Below, piece by piece: positions 5,901 through 34,514 of a stretch of 64,000 bases of DNA (positions are counted from its first letter, which is position 1; each line of letters starts with the position of its first letter). Source of the stretch: Octopus vulgaris (Eukaryota). The notes below the pieces were generated by a model, which searched no databases, was not told the origin of the DNA, and worked only from the letters and a program-made list of their open reading frames with translations. The translations under genes and the position numbers were made by a program. The DNA is taken from the NCBI GenBank assembly GCA_951406725.2, contig OX597814.1:13454001-13518000 (forward strand), in the 5' to 3' direction.

Positions 5901-5931
<31 letters not shown>

Positions 5932-7053: not shown

Positions 7054-7100
<47 letters not shown>

Positions 7101-10574: not shown

Positions 10575-11420
10575 GCTACGATTGTGTAATAGAACAGCTT
10601 TGATGCTGTCCTTGGATGCATCTATGAAAAGTCACCAGTTGGTTTTATCATATGGTATTTCCAGTTGCTCAAAAAGTTCAGTGATGTCATTACAAAAGCA
10701 TAAGTCATCCTTCATGGTGAATAATGCAAGTAGATCCTCTGTACGTTTTCTGTACAGTGCTATCTTCATCCTTTCTCACGAAGATCACGTTCTTGAAGCC
10801 TTGATACCAGAAACTCACTTTTCTCTTTGGTTAAATAGAGATCCCTGCAAAAGTCATTCAAAGCCTCTTGAGTAAATGGTATTGGTTTATTCTCGCTTTC
10901 TGGATCATTGGGCTCCAAACATTCACCACAGGAATGTTCATCAGCACAATTAGAACTCTGCATTTCTTGATCTGGTGGTTTGGGCACAGGCAAATTTTCT
11001 GTGTGCTCTACTGGGCGTATTGCTGATTGCAAATTTTGGTAAATAATGTGTAACTTTCTCTTTGCTGTAGTACAGCCTGTAAAGTCATGGTGACAGAAAT
11101 AGCAACCATTAAAGTGATCTTCCTGCTCACGCCAAATCATTGGCACACGAAACTTCATGTGAACATTTTTCCTGCATACCAGGCACTCAATGTCTTCACA
11201 TATATAAGGCAACACACATGAGGAGCCCATGACTTATCCTGGTCTCCTAAGAAACAATCGAAGTACGCCTTGTATATTTTCTCGATATGACGTGTAATAT
11301 TGCGCTTCGCTTTTGCAAAAGTCAATTCCCCACAGATATAACAGAATCTGTTTGAATCAGTTTTGCACAGTCTTGCATTCATTGTTGAAAACAAATATGA
11401 TCTGAAAGATAAACAAATAA
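10575..11420 (-). pseudogene. Chapaev3-like (CMC) transposase, N-terminal half, inverted
   Basis: RLCKTDSNRFCYICG...LGDQDKSWAPHVC, PMIWREQEDHFNGCYFC, FTQEALNDFCRDLYLTKEKSEFLVSRLQE; frameshifted. Confidence 0.8.
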
Positions 11421-11422
11421 CC

Positions 11423-14965: not shown

Positions 14966-15049
<84 letters not shown>

Positions 15050-15842
15050 ATATTAATAATATCAAAATATTCAGAAATATTTGAAATTTCCATTACCAAT
15101 GGCCTAATTTCTATTACCTTAGGCTTCTGGTAATGGAAATCTCAAATATTTCTGATTACCCTTTGATATTATTAATTATTGATAAGTTTTCTTGATAATT
15201 TTCGAATCGAAAACCCGGCAATTTATTTACTGCCAACAGGGAGTTGCGTCTGTGCGGTAGATTTGAAAAATTAGAATGTATAAAGACGGGGAATATACTG
15301 GATCGCCTCGTGCATATATATTTAGTCTAAAGTGTACCTGCTGAAGAAGACTTCGCCTACCAAATTATTTTATTTGCTAAAAAAGTCTGTAAACATTGGT
15401 CCAGTAGTTAGATGGTAAATGTTTTTTTTATTTTTCATTCCCTTCGAAACTTTTTCCCTAATAGTGGTTTGGAATTTAACTTTCCTTTCTAGCGTGCAAG
15501 GAATACAATGATGCATACCTCTTATGTGTTTAATAATATTCGGTTAATTAGCTTATTGATGTCATTTGTTTCTCTTTTTTGTCTTGGTGCGAAGATCGCA
15601 TTGTTTTACATAATTTCATTCCCTCTGGAATAATACCAATGTTTTCTTCGAAACGTATGTTGGATGTATAAAGTTTTGAAGAACACCGGGTTTTAACTCC
15701 ATTTCCTTATATATCGGCCATGCAAAAACATTTGACTAAATTCTGGAATTTCTAACTTTACAAGTAGGCTGTAATATTAGCCTGGTAACTATTTACTTAT
15801 TTTTTCCGTGTTATGTGTACCTATTCAAAAAATACACATGCA

Positions 15843-15902
<60 letters not shown>

Positions 15903-16035
15903 TATATACTTACAAAATAAGGGCAAAAGAAAAATTCTAATGCCAAATATGCCGAAAAAAAGACAAAATAGTCAATAACCATTATAATTTATGCGTCTCG
16001 AAACAAACCGATAGAAATTTCTAAAAAATCCGTTA

Positions 16036-16095
16036 TTACCGTATTGGTCCCAATTTCGGGGTTAATTCATAAGAATTTCCCCTCTTCAGCGATAA
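16036..16095 (-). ncRNA. Type I hammerhead ribozyme motif (inverted copy)
   Basis: Reverse complement of 16657-16717. Confidence 0.75.
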
Positions 16096-16656
16096 ATACG
16101 TAAGACATAAATGAAATACTTACTCATACCCATGGAAAAAGCAAGCACTAAGTCGACCTAAGTACCCCAAATATATCCAAAAATCTTCAGCACATCTCGA
16201 GAAACGTCTGATTCGAACTAGAAACTTTCACAGAGTGAGAGAATCCGGAAGTGAACACTATTAAATTTACAACTAATGAAAGGATAACATTTTTTTCGAA
16301 AACAAAATTTATCAATGGCCAGCATATAAAAAAATACCTTTAAAGGTTAAATTTATAAATAACTTACAAAATAAGAACAAAAGAAAAATTCTAATGCCAA
16401 ATATGCCGAAAAAAAGACAAAATGGTCAATAACCGTTATAATCTATGCGTCTCGAAACAAACCGATAGAAATTTCTAAAAGTGCTCACTTCCGAATTCTC
16501 TCACTCTGTGAAAGTTTCTAGTTCGAATCACACGTGACTCGAGATGTGCCGAAGATTTTCTATTTTGGATATTTTTGGTGTACTTAGGTCTGCGCGGGAC
16601 TTAGGGCTTGCTTTCTCCATGGGTATGAGTAAGTATTTCATTTATGTCTTACATAT

Positions 16657-16717
16657 TTATCGCTGAAGAGGGGAAAATTCTTATGAATTAACCCCGAAAT
16701 TGGGACCAATACGGTAA
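16657..16717 (+). ncRNA. Type I hammerhead ribozyme motif
   Basis: UUAUCG-CUGAAGA-GGGG(aaAAUUC uuau GAAUUaa)CCCC-GAAA-UUGggacCAA-UA-CGGUAA. All three stems pair; the cleavage triplet is AUA. Confidence 0.78.
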
Positions 16718-16941
16718 TAACGGATTTTTTAGAAATTTCTATCGGTTTGCTTCGAGACGCATAAATAATAATGGTTATTGACAATTTTGTCTTTTTTTTC
16801 GGCATATTTGGCATTAGAATTTTTCTTTTGCCATTAATTTGTAAGTTATTTATAAATTTAACCTTTAAAGGTATTTTTTGATATGCTGGCCATTGATAAC
16901 ATTTTTTTTAGAAAAAAGTTTTTTCTTACATTAGTTGCATG

Positions 16942-16989
<48 letters not shown>

Positions 16990-17004
16990 GTGTATATATA
17001 TATA

Positions 17005-17925
17005 TATTAAGGAATACAAAAAATGGGACAAAAACGCAAAACATGCAAACACATAGGTGATAAAATAAAGGGACAAGAAAGAACACGGACAGGTCAATCA
17101 AAGTTGTCTTTCCTCAGTTAGGTTCCAGATTATCTTTGAAATTCCGGCTGGTTATACTCGAATTTTTTTCAATCTGGCCAGCCCCAAGGAAAAACTAAGC
17201 TAAGAGCAGCACTATATTCTTTGGAAGAAAGCAGCGAATGGAAATAAAACGGAGAAATGGTACACAAATGCAAATGCAAATAGCAGGACATAACAACATA
17301 TGTCTTTCAACTAAGGACGAATTAAATTAAGGTGCTATGTGTAGAAGTGAAGCCTCACGGCCGGGACATAAAAGGCGATAGGCATGGTGAGGAATATAGA
17401 TGTTGCACGCATGGTAGTCGAACCCAAAAAAAGGTCAGGATTGGTCAAACACCGGAGAGAGAGGAGAGAGGTAGAGGCAGAGGGACTACCATCCATGCAG
17501 CATTTATATTCCTCACCATACCTATCATCTCTTATATCCCGGCTGTAAGGCTTCACTTCCACACACGCCAGCTTAATTTAATTCGTCTTTAGTCGATAGA
17601 CACCTGTTGTTACATCCTCCTATTTGCATTTGTATTTTTGTACCAATTCTCCGTTTTTTACCGTCCTTGTTTTTGTAAACATTTGCTGCTTTCTTCCAGG
17701 GCCTCTAGTCCTCTTAACTTAGCATTCACTTAGAGATGGTCAGACTGGAACAATCACAAGTATACCCAGCCGAAATGGCAAAGCTCATCTGGAACTTAAC
17801 TGAGGAAAGAAAGCTTCGAATGACCGTCCGTGTTTTTTCTTGTCCCTCTTTTGTATCATCTATTTGTCAGGATGTTTTGCGTGCTTGTCCCATTTCTTAT
17901 ATTCCTTTTGATATTGCATATTGCG
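17005..17925. repeat. About 920 bp imperfect palindrome (arms about 420 bp, spacer about 65 bp)
   Basis: 17005-17419 is the reverse complement of about 17483-17925. Flanked by (TA)n and (CA)n. Confidence 0.85.
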
Positions 17926-17975
17926 GCGTACGTACATTTTGGTCTCTTATATGTAAGTACACACACACACATACG

Positions 17976-18043
<68 letters not shown>

Positions 18044-19046
18044 TATATATAAATTTTCTGTGACTCTCTTATTCTTTCCTTGTTTCTTTCTATCTATCAG
18101 CCACTTCACACGTACTTTGTTTTTCCACTCTTCTGGCTTTCGTTCCCCCACCGCCTCTCACATTTCCTGGCTTTCTCTTCCTTCTCACTTTCCCTCCTTT
18201 TTCATTTCACTGTGTCCTTTATCTTTTCTTTCGTCCCTTCCTAATTATTCTGTCTCTCTCCCACTACCGCTCTCCTCTTCCTCCACCTGACCGGTGTTCG
18301 GCTCCGCAAAGCAAATTTTAAAAAACAATTGGGTTTTGCGGAGGGTCAAAGTGGTAGCAAAAACTGAACAGTAAGAAAAAACCCCAGTAAAAACGAAAGG
18401 TATATACATACATACATACATACATACACACACAGACGCAGACAAGCCCTCCACCCACACACAAACACACAAATTCACACACACACACACGCACACATAA
18501 GTTCATAGATATATAAAATAATAATAGTATTGAAAAGTTCACCTATGAATTTATCAGGTTATTTATTTGAAAATGCTGTAGCTATTCACTTTGAAATCAA
18601 GCAATGACCGGTCATGCATTGTCAGATAGAAATTGTATAACTGATTGTATAAGTGTAACTTCATTTTGTTCAGCTTGTCTATGTATGCATCTGTCTATAC
18701 ACATAATTATCTTCTTATTCATCTATCCCTCAACCCATGTATACATTTCTCTCACTCTCTCGCTCTCTAAATATATATGCATGTGTGTGTGTGCGCGCGT
18801 CAGTGTATGTTCGTACATATGCGTGTTTGTGTCTGTAGTTTACTGAACAAACAATTAAATATGAATCGATGAATAGATGTTGAGTGTTACTAGTTAATCC
18901 ACAACTCCTACAGTATCCAAAAGTATTCAACATTATTACAATCGTTTGCTTAATTCTCTTCATTGTGACGTAATCTTAATACAGGTAGATATGCATTATG
19001 TTACGCAACTGTCAAATCATCGGTTTAACCAACTCTCTTTTACTAT

Positions 19047-19368
19047 CTTTTATCCGTTTCAGTTATTTGAAACGAACAAATCGACCCCAGGACTTATTGT
19101 TTGTAAGCCTAGTACTTATTCTATCGGTCTCTTTCGCCGAACCGCTAGGTTATGGGTACGCAAACACACCACCATCTGTTGTCAAGCGATGTTGGAGGAC
19201 AAACACAGACACACAAACATATACACAAACATACATATGTATTTACATGCACATATATACGACAGGCTTCTTTCAGTTTCTGTCTACAATCCACTCACAA
19301 GATTTTGGTCGGCCCGAAGCTATAGTAGAAGACATGTAGTTGGTAAGCAAGCGACTTACCACTTAGCC
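19047..19368 (-). mobile_element. SINE family B (internally deleted)
   Basis: Homologous to 43610-44019. Confidence 0.75.
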
Positions 19369-19451
19369 GTAAACGAACGAGTAGCGATAGATTCGATTAA
19401 TCAACAGATTAACCGCAATAAAATTTCTAATCAAACTCACCAGTATTCTTC

Positions 19452-19662
19452 TCTACTCTGGGCACAAGGCCCGAAACTTTGGGGAAAGGAGGCCTATGGA
19501 TTAGATTGACACCAGTATGCAACTGGTACTTTAGTTATTGAACCCGAAAGGATGAAAGGCAAAGTTGACCTCGGCAGAATTTGAAGTCAGAACGTAAAAA
19601 CAGACGAAATTTTGCTAAGCATTTCACCCGGTTTGCTAACGTTTCTGTTAGCTCACCGCCTT
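19452..19662 (-). mobile_element. SINE family C (MetaSINE-like)
   Basis: Minus strand GGCGGTGAGCTAACAGAAACGTTAGC...GCCTTTCATCCTTTCGGGTTCAATAAC...GTACCAG. Confidence 0.75.
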
Positions 19663-20857
19663 CAGATACAACAATATTAGAAAATATAAAGTGGGTTGGA
19701 ATAGTCTGTCAAACATCATAGAATGGTTATTCCAAATATGTCATTACACTTAGCAACCATGTTCATAATGTTTCGTAGTTGACAGAACGTAATTGTATAT
19801 CGGAAGATAGCAGGCCCCAAGTTGATCTGCCACTATGAAACTATGTTTAAAGTTGCGGCGGTGCCGACGCTGCTTAACAAAACGCAACTACGGTATCATA
19901 ATGTTTTAAAGATAATTACATTAAGGAAAGGAATGATTAGTAAATTCCAGTGATCGTTATTCGTTCATTTAAATAGACTTCATAAAACCGTTCTGAAAAG
20001 TAATTAGTAGAAAACATAGAATATTTGATTTAGTTAATGGAGATTCAGCTAATTATAATTCAGGGAGAATAACTTAAATAAAACCGCAGATTAAGGAATT
20101 TCCACGTGAAAATTCAATTCATCAATTCATATCTCGACACCCAATACCTATTTCACTTCCATTAATCTTAGGCACACACGTCTTTGTTTATAGAAATAGC
20201 GTCTTTATGAGAATGTGTTGAAAGCAGAATTAGCAATAATAAGTTAATATATACATTCATATATTTACAAATTTATAAATATCAGCTATTTGGCTCAAAA
20301 GAAGTTACGAGTTGAGCGGACAAAAATAATAGAAATGGGAAAACAACCTCTTATAATTCTGATGGAAACAGGACTACTATAAATCTAACGCTTCAACTAA
20401 CCGATATCATTATATCATACAGGTTCGGTTGCAGCAAAAATTATATTATGACAGTTAAAAATTACTGTGAGTGTGAAGAAAGGGATAAAAAGAGTCTATA
20501 AAATGATAGAGACGTTTTAATGTCCGTAACAAGGGAGGACGACCACATAATATGCAGATATCAGTAAAAGCTACAAGCAAGTTAAAGCAACATTATCAAA
20601 AGATTGAAAGTATAGATAGCAGGCATTGAAATCATCAGTATTTGTAGTTAGTACTAATGACATGCGGCAGTAGATTGAATATGAACGGCTGTATGCATAT
20701 CAGTTCTATATTTTAAGAGGGCCTAAGCTGCATAAATGTTTTCCATGAATCATGCTACTTACAATGTCCACTATCCGTCATTTAAGTGTACACCAGACAC
20801 ATGTATCAGAACCATATATTCGTGACGTTGTGATCTCATATAGAGATAAACAGCGGA

Positions 20858-21172
20858 TGGCCTTATCCTTATCATAGCCTAGTGGTTGGGATGCTGTATT
20901 TACGAACGCAATATCGTAGTTTACATTCGTAGTTTACATTCGTAGTCCGGGTTCAGGCCAGACATAGGATCTTTAAGAGGGACAAAAATCTTGCACGGGA
21001 TTTCCAGTTGCTTTAAGAAGTCTTGAAATTTCAATGGGTTTGAACCCAAAGCCCCGATAACCACTGGTATCACTATTACATTTGAAGGCTAAAACAATGC
21101 GAAGCGCATTGTAACCAGCGATGTATAACAGCATCTGATGATAGCCTGGTCGGTCACGGTGATCATGGTGAT
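20858..21172 (+). mobile_element. Degenerate SINE family A copy
   Basis: Head-like TAGCCTAGTGGTTGGG and family-A tail CATTTGAAGGCTAAAACAATGCGAAGCG...GGTCACGGTGATC. Confidence 0.55.
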
Positions 21173-21440
21173 CAGATGTTGCTACACATCGCTTCGCATT
21201 GTTTTAGCCTTCAAATGACGCCACCTCGCTGGCTAAGCGAGCAGGTCAACAGAGGAAACAGTGAGAGAAAGTTGTGGCGAAAAGGTACGGCAGGGATCTC
21301 CACCCCACCTCTGCCGAAGCTTCGTGGAGCTTTAGGTGTTTTCGCTCAATAAACACTCACAATGCCCAGTCTGGGAATCGAAACCGCGATTTTACAACCG
21401 CGAGTCTGCTGCCCTAACCACTGGGCCATTGCGCCTCCAC
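21160..21440 (-). mobile_element. tRNA-derived SINE family A
   Basis: Minus strand GTGGAGGCGCAATGGCCCAGTGGTTAGGGCAGCAGACTCGCGG...GGTTTCGATTCCC. Confidence 0.85.
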
Positions 21441-21777
21441 ACAGACACACACACACACACACACATACACACACACACCTATATATATTTACACATATGC
21501 ATATAGGCGTCTTTTTTCGTGTGTGTGTGTGCCTGTAGTTAATTTAATATAACAACACTGGCAATTGAAACTATTGGGAACACATTTCTCGGCCCAAAAT
21601 TAATAGATATAAAAAAGCAAGAATATTTTGAAATTCCTTGTCTTTTTTTCCTTCTTTCTAGAGTGCTTTCTCTCCTTCTTCACTTGTCTTTCGGATCAAT
21701 TCGACACTTTTGCCCAATACGTTTGCGTATGTATACGTGCACGTAGGAATATGTTAGTATATTATATGACTGCTTTG

Positions 21778-21825
<48 letters not shown>

Positions 21826-22055
21826 GTGTATATATAATAGATATATAGCTGCATGTGTTTGTGTATGTGTGTAGGTATATATATATGTATATATGTGAAT
21901 ATATATATATATATATGTGTGGGTTACAAAAATTGTTTTCTGTGGAGACTTATTTTTGTAGTAAAAGGAAATAGATTTTTTGACTGCTATTTCTAATATT
22001 TTCGGTATGTGGTTTAAGCAACTTGTTGCAAAAACCCCTTATTATTATAAATGTG

Positions 22056-22146
<91 letters not shown>

Positions 22147-22634
22147 GTGTGTGTGTGTATATATATATATATGTATACAAATGTATATGCATACATATAT
22201 GTATGTATGTATGTATGTGTGTGCGAAGGCATGTGCATTGGGAATATAACTCCTTCTCTATAGATAACCCTTTCTTTTCTTGTATGATAAGCTTGAATTG
22301 TCTTTTCAATTTTCCGTGATCTATATATGCATTCTAGAGGCGTATGAACAAAATCTTTTATTCATCTCGCGACAAATTCCATTATGCGTGTCCAATAACA
22401 ATAGATATGCATTGCACATTTTCTACGAAGCATATAGCTTCCGGGAAAATGGCTTTTACTAAGTGGGGAATGCAATGGTGAATTACTTTTATAACATAGA
22501 TATTTTGATAATCATCTCCTGTAATCTATTGTGAAAAGTTCTAAAGATATACGTGGGAGTATGTGTGTGCGTGTAAGTGTGAGAGTAAAATATAGCACGA
22601 AGTGGCAAGGACACAGACACATATCTCGACCACG

Positions 22635-22685
<51 letters not shown>

Positions 22686-22688
<3 letters not shown>

Positions 22689-22930
22689 TTACTTGTTTCA
22701 GTCATTTGACTGTGGCCATGCAGGGGCACCGCTTTTATTCGTGCAATTTTACCGCATGACATATGATTTGTAAGCCTAGTACTTATTATATCGGTCTCTT
22801 TTGTCGAACCACTAGGTTACGGGGACGTAAGCACAACAACATCGGTCGTCAGGCAATGATGGGAGGAGAAACAAACGCAAACAAACATACACATACACAC
22901 AAATACACACACACACATACACAAACACAT
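22686..22930 (-). mobile_element. SINE family B 3-prime part
   Basis: TTTTACTTGTTTCAGTCATTTGACTGTGGCCATGC matches the reverse complement of the 43610-44019 tail. Confidence 0.7.
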
Positions 22931-22931
22931 G

Positions 22932-22987
<56 letters not shown>

Positions 22988-23079
22988 TATATGTAGAAGG
23001 ATGAAAAGAAACACACGAGTTGATATATGAAAAAAAAGTCAATATAGAAAATGCTAAAATAATTTTATAAAGAACATTT

Positions 23080-23117
23080 CAGTACCGGTTTCAGTCATTT
23101 TGAGACCTTTTCAACTG
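23080..23117 (-). ncRNA. Minimal variant hammerhead motif in the Penelope pLTR
   Basis: CAG-UUGAAAA-GGUC ucaaaau GACU-GAAA-CCGG-UA-CUG, with palindromic stem III ACCGGU. The core deviates from CUGANGA. Confidence 0.55.
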
Positions 23118-23727
23118 TAAGTAATTAAATTTAGAAAAATTTAAAGAAATGTTTTTTTAAAGGAATATTTGTATAGTGTTCAAATATAAGTAGCATTTTC
23201 CTTGTTTGTGGCTTGCTCTGTCTCTCTTGTTCACACTTGTGGGTTCGAGGTCGAAGGATGATGAGGAGAAGGGGGTGGGGTGGGGTTGGGAGTGCCTTGA
23301 TTGTTGTATTTCGAATGGTCAGTGGCCGCTAGCAGTTCATGAGAATATTTCTATTGAAAGGTTTGTTTATAGAATTTGCGTAGGTGTTATGCTAAAAAGC
23401 ATTAGTGATAAAGTTAGGAAGTAGAAGGGGGAGCAGAAGAAGAGGAAGAAGAAGAAGGTGAAGAAGATGAAGAAGAAGAAAAAGAAGAAGAAGGAGAAGA
23501 AGGAGAAGAAGAAGAAGTAGAGGAAGTAGATGATGATGATGATGATGATGATGAAGAGGAGGAAGAAGAAGAAGAGGAAGAAGAAAGAGGAGGGAGAATA
23601 TGAATGAGTGGATGTAGTGAGGTGTTGTATGACTTAAAGTTGGCACGTTATGGGTTATAGCTGTGATTGGGGCTGATTTGTAATGGATTCTTAGGAATGT
23701 AATATTTGCATGTGGGTTTGTGTTAAT

Positions 23728-25996
23728 CTAAAGCCGAGGTGTATATTTCGTTTTCGTAGACCCGTTCAGAAGGGGCTTATATTTTGTAATAAAGAGAGTT
23801 TCTTTACTTATTCGTTGGTTCGAGGTTGTATCGTCCTTGAATTGGTAGAGGGGGAAAATCCTGAAGTTTGGTGTTTTGTTGTTGGCGCAAGTATCTATGT
23901 GTTGGTTGAATGTTATTTTTCTCTTCTGGGGAATTTTTATCTGGGATCTGTGCAGGGCCATTCTTTTACGCAAACTATTTTGTGTTTGGCCTATGTACTG
24001 CTCTTGACATCCAGAGCAGGTTAGTGTGTATATTAGGTTCTCCGAAGCATATGTGATGTTGCTTTTCACTGTAAACCGTTGTCCCTGTTTGAAGGAGAAC
24101 ACTGATCCCTCAATTAGATAATCGCATATCCCACAATTGGGTCTTCCACATTTTTTTACTGTCGGCTTCTGTGTTGAAGAGTGTATTCGGGCTTGTGTTA
24201 GGAGACTTTTCATAGATTTAGGCTGTCTTTTGCTTTTCATGATCGTGTGTGTTTGGAGGATTGTGTTCATTCTGTGGTCATTTTTTAGCAGGCGTATGTT
24301 TTGGAGGATGGTGTCGAAGTCTTCATTGTTTAGAGGGTTGTGTGTGGAGATGTATGGTAAGGGTTTTGGTCGTAAATTTTTCTTTGATTTGGGATGTCTG
24401 AGTTCATGGATGTTTAGTTGGAGGGCACGTTGAATGCATATGTCAATAAGTGAAGGTGGGTAGTTCCTGGTAATGAGGGTATCCTTTAGTTCTTGTAGTC
24501 GTGTGTCTCTGGTGTTTGCATTGGAGACTATAGTACATATCCTTTTTGCTAGATTGAAGGGGATATTCATTCTGGTGTGTCTGGGGTGGCATGAATTGAA
24601 TGGAAGATATTGCTTAGAATCTCTAGGCTTATAGTATATATCTGTTTCTATTACATTATTAGATTTCTTAATAAGGATATCGAGGAAGGGGAGTTGTTGC
24701 TAGCTATACTCCATCGTGAATTGGATGTTTACGTCCAGTCCATTTAAAATTGCTTGGAATTCTTTGCGTTTCTCTATATTTTCATGCCAAAGAATGAAAC
24801 AGTCATCTAGGTATCTCTTCCAGTTGTTTTCTATGTAGAGGGAGAAAGGGCTGCCATATCTTTCTAGAACCTTACGATACAGACTGATTTCTAGATATCC
24901 CATGACTAGGTTGGCTAAGGAGGGGGCCATTCGCGTACCCATCGCAGTCCCCAATTTTTGTTGGTAGAAGTTGTCTTTGAAGGCGAAGAAGTTATTTTCC
25001 GGGATGAATTTAACCCCTTCTATCACGAATTCTTTTTTGATGCGATGTGGGAGTTCGTTGGCGTGATTCTCTAGCCAGAATTGAATTGCCTCTATTCCTA
25101 GGTTGTGGGGGATATTGGAGTAGAGGTTGACTACATCGAAGGATACTAGTAGGGTGTTTTTGTTTATAGTATTAGGAAGGTGATTGAGCATATCCAAGTC
25201 GTCCCTTATATAGCTTTTGGCATGTTTGAGGAGTGGTTTTAACAGGGTGTCTAAGAAGTTACTGAGGCGGTGGGTTTCGCATGCGGGACCTGCTATTATG
25301 GGTCTCAATTTGAGGTCATTAGGATTAGGGACTTTAATTATTTTGTCTGTGGCTATCTTGCATGCGTTACTTATTTTCTCACTTTTGTGTATCTTAAGAA
25401 TACCGTAGAATTGTCTGGTTTTACTTGTGAAATTGGTCATATAGTCATATTCTTTCTCGGTGAGCCCTTCTTTGTAGGGGTTTAACATGGATTTTAGTTC
25501 CCTCATTATTTTTTGTTGACTGTAGTTTTGTACCTTTTCACAGTATGTTGTGTCTTCCAACATAGATAGTATAAAAGTTATGTAAAATGTCATGTCCACT
25601 AAGACAACTGCACTGCCTTTATCGGCCTCTTTGATTGTTATTGTTTTGTCTTGTTTTAATTTGTTCAACTCAGCCCATTCTTTTTTGCTGAAGTTTGGTC
25701 TGTGTTTATGTTTGCGCATATGTGGTCGATATGTGGTCACAGAAATGATCGAGTGTTTTGTTCTTACCTTTTGAGGGGTTGTAGTTACTCCTATTTCTAA
25801 CCAACGATTCATCCTCGTTGTATTTGTCGTATAGCTCCTCAGTAAGTCGTAATTCTCTACAGAATTCTGCGATGTCTTCTTTCATTTCATTGTAGTTGGG
25901 GTGTTGTGGGGTGGGTGTAAACTTGAGTCCTTTGGAAAGTATATTTATTTGATTTGCTGTTAGTTCATTAAGAGTTAGATTGATAATTTTTATCAC
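23728..25996 (-). pseudogene. Penelope RT + Cys linker + GIY-YIG endonuclease ORF (one frameshift near 25750-25810, one stop at 24700-24702)
   Basis: LSKGLKFTPTP; KEADKGSAVV; LRPII; LVSFDVVNLYSNIP; GTAMGTRMAPSLANLVMG; RYLDDCF; CGRPNCGIC; NLIYTLTCSGCQEQYIGQT...RMALH...E..FI...P.LN. Confidence 0.92.
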
Positions 25997-26791
25997 TTTT
26001 GGTTCCTCCTGCCTGTTTGGTGCTATCTTGTGTCTCTGTGTTTGCGTAATGGGTCTAAAAAAGGAATGCGGTGCTTGGGACGGTAGCTATTATATAGTTG
26101 TTCCTTGTTGATGTGGGTGTCCTTTTGTGATTTATGGTGTGTGTTCTTGGAACAGTATTGAGAAGTGCGTCCCGATATCCCATATTCGGGTGTGGTGTTT
26201 TAGGATGCCTTCGTTGGTAATCATTGCGAGTGGTGCGGGTTTGTTGTGCATGGTGGTTGGAACGAAAATTTCGTTGGTAACTCTTTTGAGTGGGGAGGAG
26301 GTTGCAGCGTCTATCCTGTGGGTATTGATCATCATCTTCTTCTTCACTTCTTCTTCTTCTTCTTCTTCAATTCTTCTTCTTCTTCTTCTTCTTCTTCTTC
26401 TTCTTCTTCTTCTTCTTCTTCTTCTTCTTCTTCTTCTTCTTCCTCTCCCCCTTCTACTTCCTAACTTTATCACTAATGCTTTTTAGTATAACACCTACGC
26501 AAATTCTATAAACAAACCTTTCGATAGAAATATTCTCATGAACTGCTAGCCGCCAATGACCATTCAAAACACAACAATCAAGGCACTCCCAAATTCCCTC
26601 CCCTTCTCCTCATCATCCTTCTTCTTCTTCCCTACCAAGAATTCACAACGGCCTCGAACCCACAAGTGTGAACAAGAGAGACAGAGCAAAGCACAAACAA
26701 GGAAAATGCTACTTATATTTGAACACTATACAAATATTCCTTTAAAAAAATATTTCTTTTAATTTTTCTAAATTTAATTATTTAATCGTTA

Positions 26792-26829
26792 CAGTTGAAA
26801 ATGTCTCAAAATGACTGAAACCGGTACTG
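26792..26829 (+). ncRNA. Minimal variant hammerhead motif in the inverted pLTR
   Basis: CAG-UUGAAAA-UGUC ucaaaau GACU-GAAA-CCGG-UA-CUG. Confidence 0.5.
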
Positions 26830-27148
26830 AAATGTTCTTTATAAAATTATTTTAGCATTTTCTATTTTGACTTATTTTTTCATATATATATGTTTCCGTC
26901 TATCAAATCCACTCACAAGGCTATGGTTGGCCCGAGGCTAGAATAGAAGATTGAGCGCTAGCTACTAAATCCTTCTTTTTTATGCTCTCTTTTTTTATTC
27001 TCTCTCTATTTATTTTCTCGTGTTCTTTTCTGCTGAAAATTGTAGGCTCGAAATATAAAACACTTTCTCACCCTCCCGAGCGTTAAACTAATACACCTGT
27101 TTGTTGTTTGCTCACATGTCTTCGTCTTTTGGATTTTGTAAATTCCAG

Positions 27149-27205
<57 letters not shown>

Positions 27206-27206
<1 letters not shown>

Positions 27207-27432
27207 TTCTTTATTACCCACAAGGGGCTAAACATAGAGGGGAGAAACAAGGACAGACAAACGAATTAAGTCGATTACATCGACCCCAGTACGTAACTGG
27301 TACTTAATTTATCGACCCCGAAAGGATGAAAGGCAAAGTCGACCTCGGCGGAATTTGAACTCAGAACGTAACGGCAGACGAAATACGGCTACGCATTTCG
27401 CCCGGCGCGTGCTAACGGTTCTGCCAGCTCGT
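27206..27432 (-). mobile_element. SINE family C (MetaSINE-like)
   Basis: Minus strand GAGCTGGCAGAACCGTTAGC...GAGTTCAAATTCC...GCCTTTCATCCTTTCGGGGTCGATAAATTAAGTACCAG, which resembles the Meta central domain. Confidence 0.8.
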
Positions 27433-27605
27433 GACTTTGGCCATACGTGTATACACACACACACACACAGACACACACACACACACATAGGGTGTTGGGT
27501 ATGTGTGTGTGTGTCCTTGATTCTCTATATGCATGCATGTATCACTGCATGGTTCTCTGCCTGCATTGTGTTTAGTATTGGCACGTAAAAATCTATAAAT
27601 ATAAA

Positions 27606-28343
27606 GAAAATTCATAATTAATCAATATAGGGTGGCAAAAAAATTTTGTAGAATTCTTTTGCCACCAGCGGCCTAGTGGGAAAAAATTAAATAGTCATAA
27701 ACCATTTTTAAGTTCAACATCACAATCAAGGAACGGCCATAATAGGCCATTCACCCACTAGAAATAACAGCCAAAAGCTTTAACCGCAAAATAACGTCAA
27801 TTCCGTGAACCAGGAGAAAATTAAAAAAACATTTACCCTGTAATTTCTTAGACGATGCACCGTTTCATCTACTGTTTAATGGAAAACTAACCTGATTAAA
27901 TTAAATCAAGCCAATCTACCATAGGCCCTTAGATTCATCAGTAAGAAATAGCCAAGCCGGAACAGATATTTTTCACGAGGCATTATCGTTGCTACCTCGT
28001 CAATATCTGACCTAAAATTTTCAAATCGTCGCACTCGCGCCAAATTTATCGGCAGCAAATAAATATAAGCCGCCGATTCCATTACGGAATTAACCAGAAA
28101 ATTCATAATTAATCAATATAGGGTGGCAAAAAAAAATTTGTAGAATTCTTTTGCCACCAGCGGCCTAGTGGGAAAAAATTAAATAGTCATAAACCATTTT
28201 TAAGTTCAACATCACAATCAAGGAACGAGGGTAAATGTTTTTTAATTTTCTCCTGGTTTACGGAATTGACGTTATTTTGCGGTTAAAGCTTTTGGCTGTT
28301 ATTTCTAGTGGGTGAATGGCCTATTATGGCCGTTCCTTGATTA
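27606..28343. mobile_element. A-B-HHR-A-B(inverted) non-coding module
   Basis: 27606-27735 is repeated directly at 28097-28227. 27724-27839 is inverted at 28228-28343. A hammerhead lies in the unique middle. Confidence 0.8.
27843..27949 (-). ncRNA. Canonical type I hammerhead ribozyme with long stem II
   Basis: AUUUCUUA-CUGAUGA-AUCUA(...)UAGAU-GAAA-CGGugcaUCG-UC-UAAGAAAU: 8-bp stem I, perfect core and GUC cleavage triplet. Confidence 0.82.
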
Positions 28344-28832
28344 TAAATATAAAGATGCATTTATAAAACTGTTGGAAATATATTAGTAATATTCATCATG
28401 GTTTAAGTTGTGTCTATTATCTGAAATCCAATTTTACCTGTTATTTGAGTTAATTGATTGTTCAGTTAAGACATTGTAAAGATTTTCTATTTACAGAGAT
28501 AATCAATTCTGCCCAACTACGGTTATTGACTTCTGTGTTCATCTACATAATTGATGTTTACTCTACGGTAAAGATCCCATACGTAACAAAAACACGGTTC
28601 CCTCAAATGTTCGCGCTATGCTTCTTTCAATAACTTTGCAAATTTACTCCGAATATTTTCGTTGCGCTTCTGTACCCTTGACATTTAACATTTTGTATTT
28701 TTAATATTTAAATGTCTGTTATAAAACATTTATTTTTGGAAATATGATGGTAAAACATTTATCAAAAGTTTTTAATGGATATGTATGTTTTTTTTTTGTG
28801 TCTGTTTGCAATCGAAGCTCTCTTTTCACTTC

Positions 28833-29205
28833 CTCTTTTACTTTTTTCAGTAATTTGACTGCGGCCATGCTGGAGCACCACCTTTAGTCGAGCAAATCGA
28901 ACTCAGGACTTATTCTTGGTAAGCCTAGTACTTATTCTAGCTGTTTCCTTTGCCGAACCGCTAAGTAAACACACCAGCATCGGTTGTCAAGCGAAGTTGG
29001 GGGGACAAACACAGACACACAACACACACACTAACATATATACATATACATATATACGACGGGCGTCTTTCATTTTCCGTCACAAGGCTTTGGTTGGCCC
29101 GAGGCTATAGTAGAAGACACTTCTCCAAGTTGCCACGCAGTGGGACTGAATCCGGAACCATGTGGTTGGTAAGCAAGCTACTTACCACACAGCCACTCCT
29201 GCGCC
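28833..29205 (-). mobile_element. SINE family B
   Basis: Minus strand GGCGCAGGAGTGGCTGTGTGGTAAGTAGCTTGC...GGATTCAGTCCC. Confidence 0.85.
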
Positions 29206-30201
29206 CATAGATTACTTTCGTAAATGATCACATATATGACTCTATCTACATGAGTCTCAGTGTTTGTTGTGTATGCGTGTGTGATTACACTGTCTCGTGT
29301 ATCAATACATATCCACTCAACTATTGGTTGATAGTTGCGGTAGAGGAAAACTACAGCGTGGCTTCTTATTATCGAGATGGCTGTCGTGACCTTATCGTTG
29401 TTGCTAATGATGATGATCGGAGAGTGACAGAACGAGAGAGAAAGAAAGAAATTAAAGGAGGGAGGGAATAGGGGAAAAGATAATTTAGGAAACTGTCACC
29501 TTACACATCATCACGCTTATTAACAATCCTCTGTAATCATAAAGCACTGTTTTATCTCTCTTTCTCTCTCCATCATTATCAAAACGGCTGTCACCAGTGG
29601 CTCCTCAGGAACCTTCTGGTGTTATCGCTTGTCATTCATTTCCTTTCTTAATCTTTGAGTTTCTTCCCATAACGTTAACCGTATTTAAAGAAGGCAGAAA
29701 CGTGAATATTAATATATTGTTCTGTGTGCTATTAATAAACTGAACACTAATTAAGCTAATAAAACCAAAGTAGCGTGTAAAATATACAAGAAAATATGAC
29801 ACCAATTGACAGTTCGGTGTGAGAAATATGCAGTGTTTTACAACCACATCAGCTCAGTTATCATTGCTGTATCTTGAGCTATTGTTAGGTAAGCTAGATA
29901 ATCGAAGAAGCCACTATAATGAAGGGACATTTCAGCGATTAATATCCCATGCTTAATCCATAGATACAGATATACTCGAATATATGTAGCTCCTTATTTG
30001 TTTACAATTCCAAACGCGCTTCTACAAACACGCATAAAGAAATACAGAGTGAGTTGCATTCGGTATAAGAGCATACAACACCCTGTTCATGTCTGGGTAG
30101 TTACATAGATATACGTGACAGATATAGATGTGCACTCATAAAACTACACTCAATACCACACCTATATGTAATTTTACTTTTAATATTTTACCAGTTTCAT
30201 G

Positions 30202-30410
30202 AGACGGAGAGCTGGAAGAATTTAGCATGCCGGTCAAAAGGCTTAGCACTAGCACGACCGTATTCACGTTCTGGATTTAAATTCTGACGTGGCCAACTTG
30301 GCTTTCATCCTTTCGGGGTTGATAAATCAGTTGCCAGTTCATCACTGCAGGTAACGTAATAGACTTACTCCTTCCTCGAATTTGCTGGTTGTCTGCTAAA
30401 ATTTAAAATT
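30202..30410 (+). mobile_element. SINE family C (degenerate)
   Basis: GGAGAGCTGGAAGAATTTAGCATGCCGG...GCTTTCATCCTTTCGGGGTTGATAAAT. Confidence 0.65.
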
Positions 30411-31030
30411 TCTCTGTTTCGGTTTGCGATCGGAGGTCATACTGGGATACAACAGTTGATATTCTTGTAGCTTCATACCTCGTCTTTTATTCTTGACATT
30501 GCTGAATGGGAGTGTTTGACACGGCTGCCCTCATTTAGGATTCCTGAGCGAAGTTGATTCACCTAAGTCGCTTGACAGTGCAAAATCTTATTTCAATTTC
30601 AACTCACCTCCATTTACCCTAACATCAGCATCTTAATGAGGACATTGAAAATTTGAGGGACGCGGAATTCCAAGGTATTGCAAAATCTGCTCGTATGTTT
30701 TCTTCAAAGTGTGAGCTCTTTGTATCAATAAAATGGAACACTCTACTGGTGATAATAAATTTTTCAACGCCGAAGTTTTGGACCTGATATTTGAGAAAAA
30801 TCCAGATGTACATAACATCATATCTTTCCCTTCTTACACATACATACATACACACATACACACATACACAAATACATACATACATACCTAAATGCATATG
30901 TATATATATATGCATAAATATATATACATATATGTATGTATATATGTTTGTATATATATATGTATGCATGCATGTATGTATGTATATATACATATATATT
31001 TATATATATATATGAATATATATTTATGTA

Positions 31031-31068
<38 letters not shown>

Positions 31069-31080
31069 TATATAAATTTT

Positions 31081-31750
31081 ATACACGGAGTGAAGACCAC
31101 TATGTGGTCATTTTGCATGCTAGAAAGGGCAGTAAAATTTATAAATTTTATGTTCTCTAATTATGTCTATTGACATTTATTTACACATGCTAGCAACTAG
31201 GTATAAATTATTTAAAATTATTTTTATCGTTTATATAATACTTAAATAATTTATATTTTGAGGTCAGGTAATTCACTGATGAACTTATATCCACTGCTGT
31301 ATTATTCTGGCTGGGCACGATGATTGATGTAATTTGATTTGAATTGATATATAACGATGAAACTCAGTATGCAAGTGAATCGGTACGTATTCGAGTTTTA
31401 TAATTATGTGTCGCAGCAATTCTACTGAGGATCCACGGATCGTTAATTCATCAGCTGATTGATGAATTAATTGATTTATTTAATTATCAATGGTGAAATG
31501 TGGGAGTATAGAATTAACTGATACTTTAATTATTTCAAATTGCCCTGATCGCTATAAACAAGAATGATATTTCTTGATTGGGGAATTTGACTGTTCTTCG
31601 TAGCATGCAAGGAGCCAAGACAGTGGTCTTCTCTCCGTATAGAAATTTTATATATTGTAAAAATATTTCTCTCTAATGACATTTTTCTACACATGCTAGC
31701 CACTTGGTATAAATTATTATTTTTAATAAATGTTACCCTTTACATATACA
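31081..31750. mobile_element. Old inverted plus direct repeat module with decayed hammerhead (31271-31380)
   Basis: 31081-31140 is inverted at 31583-31641, and 31151-31235 is repeated directly at about 31666-31748. The middle reads AUUCA-CUGAUGA...GAAA-CU...AG-UGAAU. (TA)n flanks both sides. Confidence 0.6.
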
Positions 31751-31806
31751 TTTACTTAAATACTTACATACATACATACATACACACATAATATATATAT
31801 ATATGC

Positions 31807-31865
<59 letters not shown>

Positions 31866-31874
31866 ATCTATCTA

Positions 31875-31936
<62 letters not shown>

Positions 31937-32349
31937 GAAAAGCTTGCTCACGTGTGTTACTTAAGGGATTCTAAAAATCTCTTTGAATGCATCAGGGAAA
32001 ATGTGAATTCCTATGGTACATTTTAAGTGCTAATTCCAGTGGATAAATTGTGTGAAAGAAAGTGACATTTCAGTACCCATTCTCTTCTACATATACTTTG
32101 CCGGGATACAAACGTATGTTTGAAAGCATATGCGTATATCCTATTTAGAATCTCTAGCAAAGTATTTAATTTGAGCCGCTTCACCAAGTCAAAGATGTTT
32201 AGTATTCTTGTCAGAAAATCCCTTATGCTCATGATCCAAATTCTGTTGCTCATTCAATGCATGACAGTGGACTAGTTCTCGAATCCATACACAGTATTTG
32301 TTCTAAGTGTTATCATAAAAATAAGAAACGTTATGTATAGTCCACTAAT

Positions 32350-32990
32350 AAGGAAAGTGTATGTTGTGTCTGTCACTATCGTGGAAGGTGAAATACTCCA
32401 AGAAATGGACAACTTTGCGTAGCTTAGAAGTACATTTAGTAGAGGTGGCATCCCTGGCGCTGAAATAAATAAACAACTAAAAGGTTGGCGAAAGCTAGTA
32501 TTGCTTTCGGGTAAATCGAGTAGAGAGTCTGGTCAGATCGATGTATCATGAGAGATTAAAAAAATCACTCTATATGAAGCATGTGTCCTTATAGCCTTAC
32601 GATAGGAATGCGAAACATGGCCAAATTGCAGGATGCCCGGTGCATCCTGAACATAACATGGTCCTCTTACACAACATAATTTGCTGTATTTGAGAAAGCT
32701 CCAATGTTGCGGAAATGATAATTTAGAACCATATCCTTTGGGCTGGTCAGATCATCGGACTAAAAGATAGCAGGTTGCAAAAAGAGTAATATGACAGAGA
32801 GCTGACCAGAGGGAAGAGGCGAAAGTAGAAATTTGAAAGTAGTTTATGTACGGCATAAAAGGCAGCCTTAAATCTATGGAAACTGATATCTATAGTGCTG
32901 TTAGCCGTATGTCATGGAAAGTGAAACTATCATTTACAAGTATGGCGTCGTCGAGTTAAAGCGAATGGAATATGCTGTTTTGGAGCTTTC
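32350..32990 (+). pseudogene. RTE-clade LINE RT C-terminal relic
   Basis: EILQEMDNFA*LRSTFSRGG...KASIAFGK...KITLYEACVLIALR*ECETW matches the F.YLGS...KA..AF..L...LLYG.ETW pattern. Confidence 0.7.
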
Positions 32991-33943
32991 TCTCTGTCAG
33001 ATGGAAGTGTAATGAAAGCAGGAACACAGCAGGAATGGAGGTGTAAAGTGTAGATAATTTCTCTCTGACTTACTGGGTTTGTCATTGGTGTAATGTCAGA
33101 TGAATCAGAGAGTAGTTGAACTCTAAGAGAGATGGTTCTACTGTCACGCGCACCTTAGTAAGTTTTACTGAAAAAAGGAATAAAAGCCACATCAGTGAAC
33201 GTTACTGCAGAACGAAAGCTGAACTAAAAATCCATCTGTATGCATATGGTCGACCAATGTTCAATAAAGCCATAACACTACTCCGATAAAAAGTAGCTGT
33301 TAGCATACATACGTACAAGAATGCATGCATACAAGCTTCCACACACATACGGACACGCATAGGCACACCCGCGGACACATATATCCAAGCACAGAAGCAC
33401 ACACACATACACATACTCACAGAATAAATACAAAGTGCAATTTCAACAAATCTGATAGGAGAAAAAAATTAATTTAAATGTTACATGATTAGATTTATAA
33501 TATCACAGTGATAGCGACCTTCATACAAATTTTAGAAAAACGTGTACATGCTGCAGAAATAAACCAACATGGTATTTTACGTAAAATGTACTGAAGATGT
33601 TTGAAATGTTGTAGAGACATTTCATTCTGAGGAAAACTTGAATATCTATATAACTATAATATATAGTTTGCTGTCTCGTTCGGGTAAACTAAACAAAAAT
33701 CAGTACTCCAGTGAGCGATAAACACCATTTAGTATATACCGTATGAAGATAAGGTCTACCAATAACCTCTTGGTGTGAATACATGTGGCTAGGCAGAGTT
33801 AATAACGTGCTAAGTCCCGTGTCATCACAGCAACAAACTGTTAGTAGATCTTACGTTTATACTGTGTGCATTAAATGATAATTAACCTACACTGATATAA
33901 TGTATACTTTATGTGTGTATGCATGTATATATATATATATATA

Positions 33944-34323
33944 ATTATAACAGTGAGGGTCTTTGCAACAAGTTGCTAGACTACATACCGAAAGTATTAG
34001 AAATAGCAGCCAGAGGACTGTTATTTCTATTACTACAAAAATTAAGATTACCTAGCATTTCTTGATTCATTTATCGGAATATTATATTGATGAAGGAAAT
34101 GAATCTTTGATTCTAATCCAGAAACGTAAGCGTCCATAATTGACCGTGACTGTTTGATCTCGTTATGGTACTTCGGCTTTTTGCCATATAATGAGTTACA
34201 AATACTGTTGTCGATGGGGACATATTTTTGTAGTAAAAGAATTAACAGTCCCCTGGCTGCTATTTCTAATATTTTCGGTATGTGGTCTAGCAACTTGTTG
34301 CAAAGACCCTCATTGTTATAATT
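33944..34323. mobile_element. Inverted-arm module with central hammerhead
   Basis: 33944-34042 is the reverse complement of 34223-34323. The same arm occurs alone at about 21952-22050. Confidence 0.8.
34081..34140 (+). ncRNA. Type I hammerhead motif, slightly decayed
   Basis: AUUAUa-UUGAUGA-aGGA(aauGAAUC uuu GAUUCuaa)UCCa-GAAA-CG uaag CG-UC-cAUAAU. GUC site; C3U change and terminal stem mismatches. Confidence 0.65.
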
Positions 34324-34421
34324 AGATATAATTTTACCGAATATGGTCCTTTTCCATACTGAAAGACTATTTGGTGAAATTTGTTGATTTTATTAAATTA
34401 ATTCTATTTCATCCTTTATCT

Positions 34422-34514
<93 letters not shown>

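Follow-up and report, generated by a model that had tools for sequence, protein, structure and literature searches.

Insertion ends of hammerhead-carrying modules in the octopus genome probably record how retrozymes are copied

Repeat modules and a broken Penelope-like element

The window studied here is a 64,000-nt stretch of Octopus vulgaris DNA (contig OX597814.1 of assembly GCA_951406725.2, positions 13,454,001–13,518,000); coordinates below count from its first letter. It holds a broken autonomous-type Penelope-like element (PLE) and four short modules, M1–M4, described in a first-pass annotation as built from direct and/or inverted repeats. Repeats were called by masked self-BLAST (microsatellites swamped a generic repeat finder), and this build was found in all four. 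The arms of M1 (15908–16937) are 90–91% alike, and there is an internal direct repeat too. M2 (27605–28342) has a direct repeat (130/132) and an inverted arm (114/116), M3 (31067 to ~31765) an inverted match of 57/73 and a direct match of 92/126, and M4 inverted arms at 33944–34042 and 34224–34322 that are 94% alike. The fold-back leaves both 3′ ends facing outward in M1–M4, as in the broken PLE. M1–M3 are partial tandems of a 467–514 bp unit (in-window periods 467, 491 and 500–514) with an inverted 5′-truncated copy; M4 has the inverted copy alone, with no tandem seen in the window copy.

The modules have a GC content of 31–36% and, as had been claimed, no ORFs of note, the longest ATG-ORF being 44–58 aa across modules. 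A tblastn search with 120 PLE-related proteins gave no match in any module; the RT and GIY-YIG reading frame is absent from all of them. The same proteins matched 60232–61167 as well as 23749–26077. A 113-aa stop-free antisense frame in M4 was dropped as a gene candidate, Pfam giving no match above cut-off.

The modules had been called sequence-unrelated. That stands at strict scoring, but softer scoring relates M1 and M3 in register, with none of 2000 dinucleotide shuffles as good. M1 and M3 are distant relatives, and the modules represent fewer independent lineages than first stated. A hairpin motif common to M1 and M2 was not significant (121/2000 shuffles). Two further elements turned up. 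A 5′-truncated second member of the M4 family (21920–22050, + strand, 82%) lacks an inverted arm. A fifth and older module, M0 (15045–15846, +), is bounded by (TA)n, is a distant relative of M2 and carries a decayed hammerhead near 15335–15410.

The PLE (22991–26887, − strand) is of the Neptune/Nematis type, with RT, a CxxxxCxxC linker and GIY-YIG; its RT and GIY-YIG frame is present but broken. It has an inverted end copy, a 32-nt tail and outward-pointing ends. It was said to share the inverted-end, (TA)n-bounded layout of the modules; the inverted ends are there, while a (TA)n boundary is found at the left only, the right end lying 263 nt off a tract. We found no likeness between any module and this PLE's end, nor, in this analysis, any autonomous pLTR homologous to the units. 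Elsewhere in the window, 55376–56806 resembles a truncated relative of this PLE (1/2000 shuffles).

Hammerhead motifs

Scanned with a hammerhead descriptor, the whole window yielded three matches scoring at least 12, two in M1 and one in M2, against none in 20 block shuffles; scanning for types I and III returned type I alone. When U3-A8 and U3-G8 cores were admitted, there were seven matches at 6.5 or above versus 1.2 expected, and both PLE ends and M4 joined the list. The view that every module carries a type I hammerhead therefore needs qualifying: the motif is intact in both copies of M1 and in M2, and decayed in M3 and M4.

The left hammerhead of M1 (16036–16095, −) has a predicted cut after 16042 and a fold z of −3.4. 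The right one (16657–16717, +) has an AUA triplet, a near-palindromic loop III and a predicted cut after 16711. In M2 (27843–27949, −), helix I is 8 bp, loop II is long, the triplet is GUC and the predicted cut falls between 27851 and 27850. The putative remnant in M3 (31443–31517, +) was missed by the scans and recognised from the in-register alignment with M1; its 5′ core box is disrupted, and the cut would lie after 31510. A CTGATGA near 31276 in M3 was rejected as an intact ribozyme, having no helix I in any scan and a fold z of +1.1. M4 has a degenerate motif (34081–34140, +) with a U3-G8 core and a broken first pair in helix I, and its score was equalled in 2 of 30 shuffles. Each sense run of the window copies holds one hammerhead. 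Each end copy of the PLE carries a hammerhead of the minimal U3-A8 kind (23077–23120, −; 26787–26834, +), whereas the units carry helix-III hammerheads.

Rfam, proposed as a check, did not recover a hammerhead in any module among 120 window matches at E≤1. The sole hammerhead among them, an HH9 match at the PLE end, fell below threshold (23.1 bits against a cut-off of 52, E 0.3), and the rest included microsatellite-driven miRNA matches. Hammerhead scans of 1470–1920, 4960–5450, 8040–8680, 17009–17907, 48950–49960, 53000–53700 and 59600–60300 found nothing.

Insertion termini and targets

Relative to the cut, M1, M2 and M3 have a common layout, the hammerhead being followed by terminus A and then terminus B. 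Terminus A lies at +135 in M1, +126 in M2 and +146 in M3, and terminus B at +226, +243 and ~+255, the M3 values being counted from its inferred cut. The tail from A to B thus spans 91–117 nt, versus 32 in the neighbouring PLE, whose ends are at +60 and +92 rather than about +130 and +240.

The left arm of M1 (15908–16480, −; 1.2 units of the ~467-nt unit) starts 16 nt beyond the predicted cut, passes the unit junction and finishes at terminus A by (TA)n. The right arm (16481–16937, +) is one unit less ~10 nt and finishes at terminus B by (TA)n. The unit junction of M1 falls at the position where its other arm starts; in unit coordinates the arms are separated by 102 nt and so are non-adjacent. 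The main arm of M2 (27605–28227, −) covers 1.27 units of the 489–491-nt unit, from +116 to terminus B, and its inverted arm (28228–28341, +) runs from +12 to terminus A. M3 has an inverted arm (31067–31139, −) finishing at terminus A by (TA)n and a main arm (31140–31765, +) that is an old partial tandem of period 500–514. The inverted arm of M4 (33944–34042, −) finishes at terminus A (+188), which (TA)n immediately adjoins, and the second M4-family copy finishes at this same terminus, also by (TA)n. The main arm of M4 (34043–34425, +) probably extends beyond 34322 until it meets a (TA)n tract at 34426, which would put terminus B at +291. No arm seen exceeds 1.3 units. In all three tandem modules the start of the main arm is no more than 17 nt from A or B (0.003 by a rough, post hoc estimate of chance), and two arms, the inverted arm of M2 (+12) and the left arm of M1 (+16), start just past the predicted cut.

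M1, M3 and M4 lie beside (TA)n, in agreement with the first-pass annotation, and a (TA)≥6 tract occurs within 15 nt of four of the eight module ends versus 2.5% of background positions. The M2 copy adjoins no such tract and has instead a 14-bp TSD (27594–27607 and 28342–28355), the last 3 nt of the left copy being common to the unit; a TSD cannot be read where (TA)n forms both flanks.

The M2 family in sequencing runs

The M2 monomer alone was compared with contigs of four of 24 listed sequencing runs, two DNA and two presumed RNA. The family is abundant: 5033 and 14599 contigs aligned in the two DNA runs, with the caveat that depth here is a sum over overlapping contigs and no measure of copy number. 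A head-to-tail joint, 28095 to 27605/27607 (489–491 nt), was present in all four runs (7, 34, 1 and 1 contigs), and the junction contigs carry point variants at the junction. The share of contigs continuing into unlike sequence was zero in both DNA runs. Among 24 of the 221 loose ends, four enter (TA)n, all at ~27614 or 27717–27722; these contact points, ~100 nt apart, coincide with the two termini of the window copy. The presumed RNA runs contain the unit and the junction and indicate neither strand nor circularity, their RNA status being a guess on which we base no claim of expression. Exact 21-nt motifs, one from M1 and one from M2, had no matches in metagenome contigs.

Deletion joints within the unit were also seen, and three of seven have their start at position +1 or +2 relative to the predicted cut, versus 0.05 expected. 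These three are single contigs, two of them perhaps from one event, and they could be due to short microhomologies. None of the nine M2 joints listed changes strand; the inverted arm is known from the window copy only. Since contigs are mostly 80–200 nt, none spans two hammerheads.

Within the hammerhead, at least 15 sites vary across the family and none of them is among the 11 invariant core positions, in 40 of the 110 variants listed. By itself this absence is not significant (p 0.17). Positions N7 and N17 (C/A) both vary, and a GC-to-AT change in loop III preserves the palindrome; the joint chance of the whole pattern is 0.004.

Identity of the modules and their copying

We consider it quite likely that M1–M3, and probably M4, are insertions of protein-free hammerhead units (non-LTR retrozymes of 467–514 bp), likely copied and inserted by PLE RT and GIY-YIG endonuclease. 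The hammerhead motifs together with Penelope-shaped insertion ends argue for small parasites copied by Penelope enzymes. M2 is a non-autonomous retrozyme unit rather than a truncated PLE, because its junction recurs in all four runs compared, it ends at two fixed (TA)n places, no contig of the DNA runs continues into unlike sequence, and it has a 14-bp TSD. This supports for M2 the suggestion that non-autonomous ribozyme retroelements are mobilised by PLE enzymes. The in-window tandems suggest that the same is probably true of M1 and M3; M4, having no tandem, could be a truncation.

The copying steps can probably be read from the insertion ends. A head-to-tail stretch, of which we observed the M2 tandem junction, would be transcribed. 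The hammerhead would cut some of these RNAs, though not at every site; we infer such partial cutting from arms that cross intact hammerheads and, on the other hand, from two arms and three deletion joints whose first position lies at the cut or shortly beyond it. A PLE enzyme would then cut AT-rich DNA, mostly (TA)n, the target observed for the M2 family and from module flanks. Reverse transcription would be primed within the RNA by each DNA end, at either of two fixed positions, ~130–145 and 230–255 nt past the cut, a step that we propose from in vitro results for a lizard PLE; for M2, two termini were observed. Judging from the geometry, the copy started downstream would extend until it meets the region where the upstream copy began, or until a unit is complete, and the two cDNA ends would join head to head, leaving one direct arm and one inverted arm. 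An insertion longer than one unit would retain the junction and could act as a new source.

A linear multimeric template accounts for arm geometry and cut-site junctions no less well than circular RNA does. It is tentatively possible that octopus retrozymes are a radiation of several lineages with one conserved layout, whose insertions record a PLE enzyme dimer priming twice on a linear multimer with a 5′ end made by the ribozyme. If so, double priming would explain the inverted ends of PLEs in general, the insertions would be genomic evidence that the hammerhead cuts during transposition, and a linear template would replace the circular one for these retrozymes. In the published retrozyme model, RT reads round a circular monomer made by the hammerhead, which for these elements we think rather unlikely. 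The right arm of M1, one unit less ~10 nt, is what one round on a circle would give, the units are highly self-paired (folding z −6.6 for M2, −2.7 for M1), and coral and mussel retrozymes are abundant circles according to the available text of PMC7229834. Against this, no 5′ end exists at the cut in a circle, whereas starts lie at +12 and +16 for two arms and at +1 or +2 for three of seven deletion joints, and arms of at most 1.3 units leave no long concatemers; stalling at a folded ribozyme could still account for the +12 and +16 starts.

That the modules are ordinary 5′-truncated PLE ends (solo pLTRs) from several autonomous families, their short direct repeats being one-off template jumps, is improbable, although a typical PLE insertion is a truncated partial tandem that includes an inverted copy (PMC8557442 and PMC3846280, as far as their available text goes). 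M4 and its second copy, with one 3′ end, differing 5′ ends and no tandem, would suit this explanation, and 55376–56806 looks like such a truncation. A one-off jump does not account for an M2 junction that recurs in four of four runs with inherited variants and without run-on in DNA contigs, nor for the coincidence in M1 of the junction with the other arm's start; PLE protein similarity is absent from every module, and helix-III hammerheads with ends near +130 and +240 contrast with the minimal U3-A8 motif and +60/+92 of the autonomous-type end. MITEs and Helitron-associated repeats typically have inverted ends and TA-rich targets, which the modules have too, and satellite arrays could yield a common head-to-tail junction, but DNA-type non-autonomous elements, or satellites with a chance hammerhead-like motif, are a highly improbable source given inverted arms of 73–573 nt with variable inner junctions in place of a MITE's fixed terminal inverted repeats, a second M4 copy with no inverted arm at all, a family that ends at two internal sites with a 14-bp TSD, and hammerhead scores in M1 and M2 above all shuffles.

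Comparison with known systems

Retrozymes and their link to PLEs are already published, mobilisation having so far been argued from co-occurrence and pLTR similarity. New here are the ~100-nt tail between the two termini of retrozyme modules, the deletion joints (three of seven) that begin at the predicted ribozyme cut, and an arm geometry suggesting that one multimeric RNA was primed twice. How the inverted ends of PLEs arise and what their hammerhead does are posed as questions in the available portions of PMC8557442, PMC11167929, PMC7229834 and Li, Clavereau and Pollet 2026 (bioRxiv 10.64898/2026.07.22.740005). With an abundant, young family of 490 bp whose ends can be measured, such questions become countable, in inversion start sites, cDNA stops at the cut, and linear versus circular templates. 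Octopus repeat annotation may miss the retrozyme class: the words ribozyme and retrozyme do not occur in the text and supplement of a 2026 O. vulgaris annotation (its repeat library being outside the comparison), and a giant squid paper counts 235 hammerhead-1 matches with nothing further on them. The literature searched, which excluded most subscription papers, Repbase and the supplements of PMC7229834 and Li 2026, contained no study of octopus or cephalopod retrozymes; nor, again with most subscription papers excluded, did it contain one of twin priming or template jumps in PLEs.

Metazoan non-LTR retrozymes, for which PLEs were proposed as helpers (Cervera and de la Pena 2020, PMC7229834, in its available text), resemble the modules in being non-coding, low in GC and head-to-tail with type I hammerheads. 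High copy is common to them and the M2 family, and their TSDs exceed 4 bp, compared with 14 bp at M2. The mussel retrozyme, also from a mollusc, is 350–390 bp, the octopus units 467–514 bp. Circles are described there, while the octopus units are known from sequence alone. Several features of the octopus copies, namely dispersed insertion, arms of at most 1.3 units, inversion of one arm, a pair of fixed termini and a preference for (TA)n, were not found in that text, where the words inverted and octopus do not occur. In its available text, Li 2026 regards non-LTR retrozymes as non-autonomous PLE derivatives, a conclusion on origin that we share, and describes monomers, dimers and multimers with consensus lengths of 51–972 bp. 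It argues from co-occurrence and from pLTR homology across 31 vertebrates, three insects and one coral; we argue from insertion anatomy. It takes copies as active when they have at least two consecutive units, each with a complete hammerhead, and reports that eight of nine Xenopus retrozyme dimers failed to cleave.

PLE insertions show partial tandems, an inverted 5′-truncated copy, a tail and a (TA)n bias (PMC8557442, available text). The modules share the partial tandem and inverted truncated copy of EN+ PLE insertions (PMC8557442, PMC3846280) and, with PMC9977147 added, their microsatellite bias and long TSD, again as far as these texts are available. Where those insertions have a tail of 30–40 bp at one end, the two termini of the modules lie 91–117 nt apart, and unlike EN+ PLE insertions the modules have no ORF start recognisable at their termini. 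In vitro, a PLE used two internal RT starts and cut both strands, and its hammerhead was dispensable for insertion (PMC11167929). ORF-less head-to-tail partners like the modules exist in Chlamydomonas (Chlamys), but there they lack canonical hammerheads and target (C)n rather than (TA)n (available text of PMC8557442, PMC3846280 and PMC9977147).

The plant LTR retrozyme has a type III hammerhead in two LTRs and a 4-bp TSD, in contrast to type I and 14 bp in the modules. Twin priming was reportedly put forward for L1 inversions by Ostertag and Kazazian in 2001. In the summary available in PMC2246262, two DNA ends prime one RNA and leave an inverted segment, as we propose for the octopus modules; unlike in L1 twin priming, both priming points in the modules appear to be fixed and internal.

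Modules and their hammerheads

The first-pass annotation described a set of hammerhead-carrying fold-back modules. The set is real and mostly correctly described. That its members are non-autonomous elements bearing the insertion marks of Penelope-like elements (PLEs) is established for module M2 (27605-28342), likely for M1 (15908-16937) and M3 (31067 to about 31765), and possible for the fourth, M4. The kind of element is already known; the geometry of its ends is the new, testable part. Direct or inverted repeats are real in all four modules, M4 (33944-34322, probably on to about 34425) included, and the modules, at 31–36% GC, are indeed non-coding: tblastn with 120 PLE-related proteins gave no matches, and the longest ATG-ORFs are 44–58 aa. 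Their description as sequence-unrelated does not hold throughout: M1 and M3 align in register from hammerhead to end (0/2000 shuffles; pair chosen out of 45 comparisons).

A fifth module, M0 (15045-15846), is a distant relative of M2, with which it is collinear (global score 60 vs. a best of 31 in 1000 shuffles, likewise for a pair chosen out of 45 comparisons). M0 is (TA)n-bounded. Its left end folds back over 62 nt, its hammerhead (near 15335-15410) is decayed, and immediately beyond the cut it has a splice-donor-like motif in common with M2.

A type I hammerhead had been claimed for each module. It is intact in M1 (16657-16717 (+) and 16036-16095 (-)) and M2 (27843-27949 (-)), and these three were the only matches scoring at least 12 in a descriptor scan of the whole window, vs. 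0 in 20 shuffles, though none of the module motifs scored in an Rfam search. In M4 the motif is degenerate, and its score does not clearly exceed chance (2/30 shuffles score as well). Scans found no intact motif in M3, for which we infer a remnant at about 31443-31517, placed by alignment to M1. Loops III of the M1 and M2 hammerheads are self-complementary and would form dimer duplexes at -12.3 and -17.5 kcal/mol, as described for animal hammerheads that act as dimers (PMC4209133).

Read by eye, the M1 hammerhead lies between a donor-like site on its upstream side and an acceptor-like one downstream (16629-16740), which recalls the intron of Penelope terminal repeats (pLTRs). Another hammerhead-like sequence at 48300-48437, with complete core, long loop II and weak stems, lies immediately upstream of a long (ATT)n tract.

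The M2 family in sequencing runs

Part of the M2 monomer was present in 20 of the 24 runs listed. Contigs of four runs were placed on 27545-28095, numbering 5033 and 14599 in the two DNA runs. Summed contig depth in the DNA runs, which is not a copy number, was about 1e5 to 4.6e6 across the unit (the head-to-tail repeat) vs. 16–139 on the flank. The family is plainly abundant. A joint from 28095 to 27605 or 27607 recurred in all four runs (7, 34, 1 and 1 contigs) and came in several point variants. For each of the two DNA runs, the share of contigs leaving the unit for unlike sequence came to 0; the unit therefore closes on itself at 489–491 nt family-wide. A single template jump off a long element would leave no such closure. 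Of the 24 loose ends listed (out of 221), 4 enter (TA)n, each at one or other terminus of the window copy (about 27614 or 27717-27722). No strand-change joint was among the M2 joints listed, and the inverted arm was seen in the window copy only.

Of 40 variants listed (out of 110), 15 fall inside the hammerhead. None touches the 11 invariant core positions, N7 and N17 (C/A) both vary, and loop III variants alter the sequence while keeping the palindrome; this pattern has a joint chance of 0.004, the core taken by itself one of 0.17. The two positions of helix II pair 27871/27930 each vary, compatibly and perhaps in linkage. Three of seven skip joints are compatible with a position +1 or +2 from the predicted cut (0.05 expected), each a single contig and two perhaps one event. 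The unit was also found in two runs guessed to be RNA, whose contigs are uninformative on strand, ends and circles. One contig of run X5, guessed to be RNA, exits the unit at 27836, a donor-like site 14–15 nt past the cut, into unlike sequence, as expected of splicing from the unit to a downstream exon.

Termini, (TA)n targets and the neighbouring PLE

With the hammerhead strand as sense, every module has two outward 3' ends and two 5' ends joined inside. The neighbouring PLE (22991-26887 (-)) has this layout too. Measured in nt from the predicted cut, the termini of M1 are at +135 and +226, those of M2 at +126 and +243, and those of M4 at +188 and probably at +291; M3 has its termini at +146 and about +255 from the inferred cut. 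The spacing of 91–117 nt may correspond, by analogy, to the PLE 'tail' of 30–40 bp, the in vitro distance between two internal reverse transcriptase (RT) start sites (PMC11167929). Partial tandems have periods of ~467 nt (M1), 491 nt (M2) and 500–514 nt (M3); none was found in M4 (114/300 shuffles score equally well). A second M4-family copy, at 21920-22050, has the same terminus as M4, beside (TA)n.

The reported proximity to (TA)n held: 4/8 module ends are within 15 nt of a (TA)≥6 tract vs. 2.5% of background positions, the modules having maybe been chosen partly for this. The M2 target-site duplication (TSD) is 14 bp. Old palindromes at 17009-17907 (74%) and 1470-1633 (72%), possibly PLE-type fold-back stumps, also abut (TA)n at their left ends; a scan found no hammerhead in them.

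The neighbouring PLE is a broken copy, with a stop between its RT (PF00078, E 1.6e-9) and GIY-YIG (PF01541, E 2.3e-5) frames. Octopus proteins are among the closest matches to the RT frame (24700-25881), one from O. bimaculoides being 84% identical along 58% of the query, which makes an Octopus species the most likely host. A CxxxxCxxC linker precedes the endonuclease and matches the motif reported for PLEs of the Neptune and Nematis types (PMC8557442). Both ends carry a minimal hammerhead motif with the U3-A8 core variant known in other PLEs (PMC4209133), and the termini lie at +60 and +92 from the predicted cut. Its end resembles none of M1–M4.

Kin of this PLE end occur at 55376-56806, which is (TA)n-bounded with inverted arms of ~400 nt (72%) and a decayed minimal hammerhead; by sequence it looks like an ordinary truncated PLE, a contrast to the modules. 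A second PLE fragment (60232-61167, 84% identity to 24599-25311) is interrupted by a (TA)n tract, and scanning downstream of it found no hammerhead.

Other repeats were noted. Near-identical direct repeats at 4977-8660 (235 bp at 98.7%; 188 bp at 96%, period 419), in which a scan found no hammerhead, are a recent duplication or an assembly artefact. Inverted repeats of 190 bp (96%) at 10569-11618 enclose broken reading frames, which we take to be probably a DNA transposon remnant. Reading-frame pieces beside long (AAT)n tracts at 52378-55058 presumably resemble the C-terminal zinc-knuckle/endonuclease region of non-LTR retrotransposons.

Proposed insertion mechanism

M2 combines a short self-closing unit, two termini, a (TA)n target and a long TSD; M1 and M3, each a single copy, have the same layout. 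A PLE enzyme would perform the copying, because the literature treats these end features as specific to PLEs (PMC8557442, PMC11167929 and PMC3846280). Both arms, left and right of the inner joint, may further derive from one RNA. The main arms of M2 and M3 begin 11–17 nt inside the end point of the inverted arm, so that the two arms of each module span one continuous ~1.4–1.5 units; the second arm of M1 measures one unit minus 10 nt, with a 102-nt gap between arms. The main arm starts within 17 nt of a terminus in 3/3 cases (M1–M3; rough post hoc chance 0.003). An origin of both arms from one RNA would fit the lizard PLE, which cuts and extends both strands and is a predicted dimer (PMC11167929).

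Inverted arms start 16 nt (M1) and 12 nt (M2) past the cut, which suggests a 5' end made by the ribozyme. These starts could instead come from a stall at the folded ribozyme, and in M2 the position may be coincidence, its inverted arm of 115 nt being similar in length to those of M3 and M4. As for ribozyme cleavage, the arms traverse intact hammerheads, so the predicted cutting would be partial.

Comparison with known systems

A literature search of incomplete coverage, made without repeat databases, found no study on retrozymes (non-autonomous hammerhead-carrying retroelements) in octopus, on PLE twin priming or on a tail of 100 nt. The arm geometry resembles L1 twin priming as outlined in PMC2246262. 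ORF-less PLE partners are known in Chlamydomonas (PMC8557442 and PMC9977147). The module units work like metazoan non-LTR retrozymes (PMC7229834) and on testable features would belong to them, a group further defined by cleavage, circular RNA and copies with two consecutive hammerheads; a PLE origin of non-LTR retrozymes is argued in a 2026 preprint (bioRxiv 10.64898/2026.07.22.740005).
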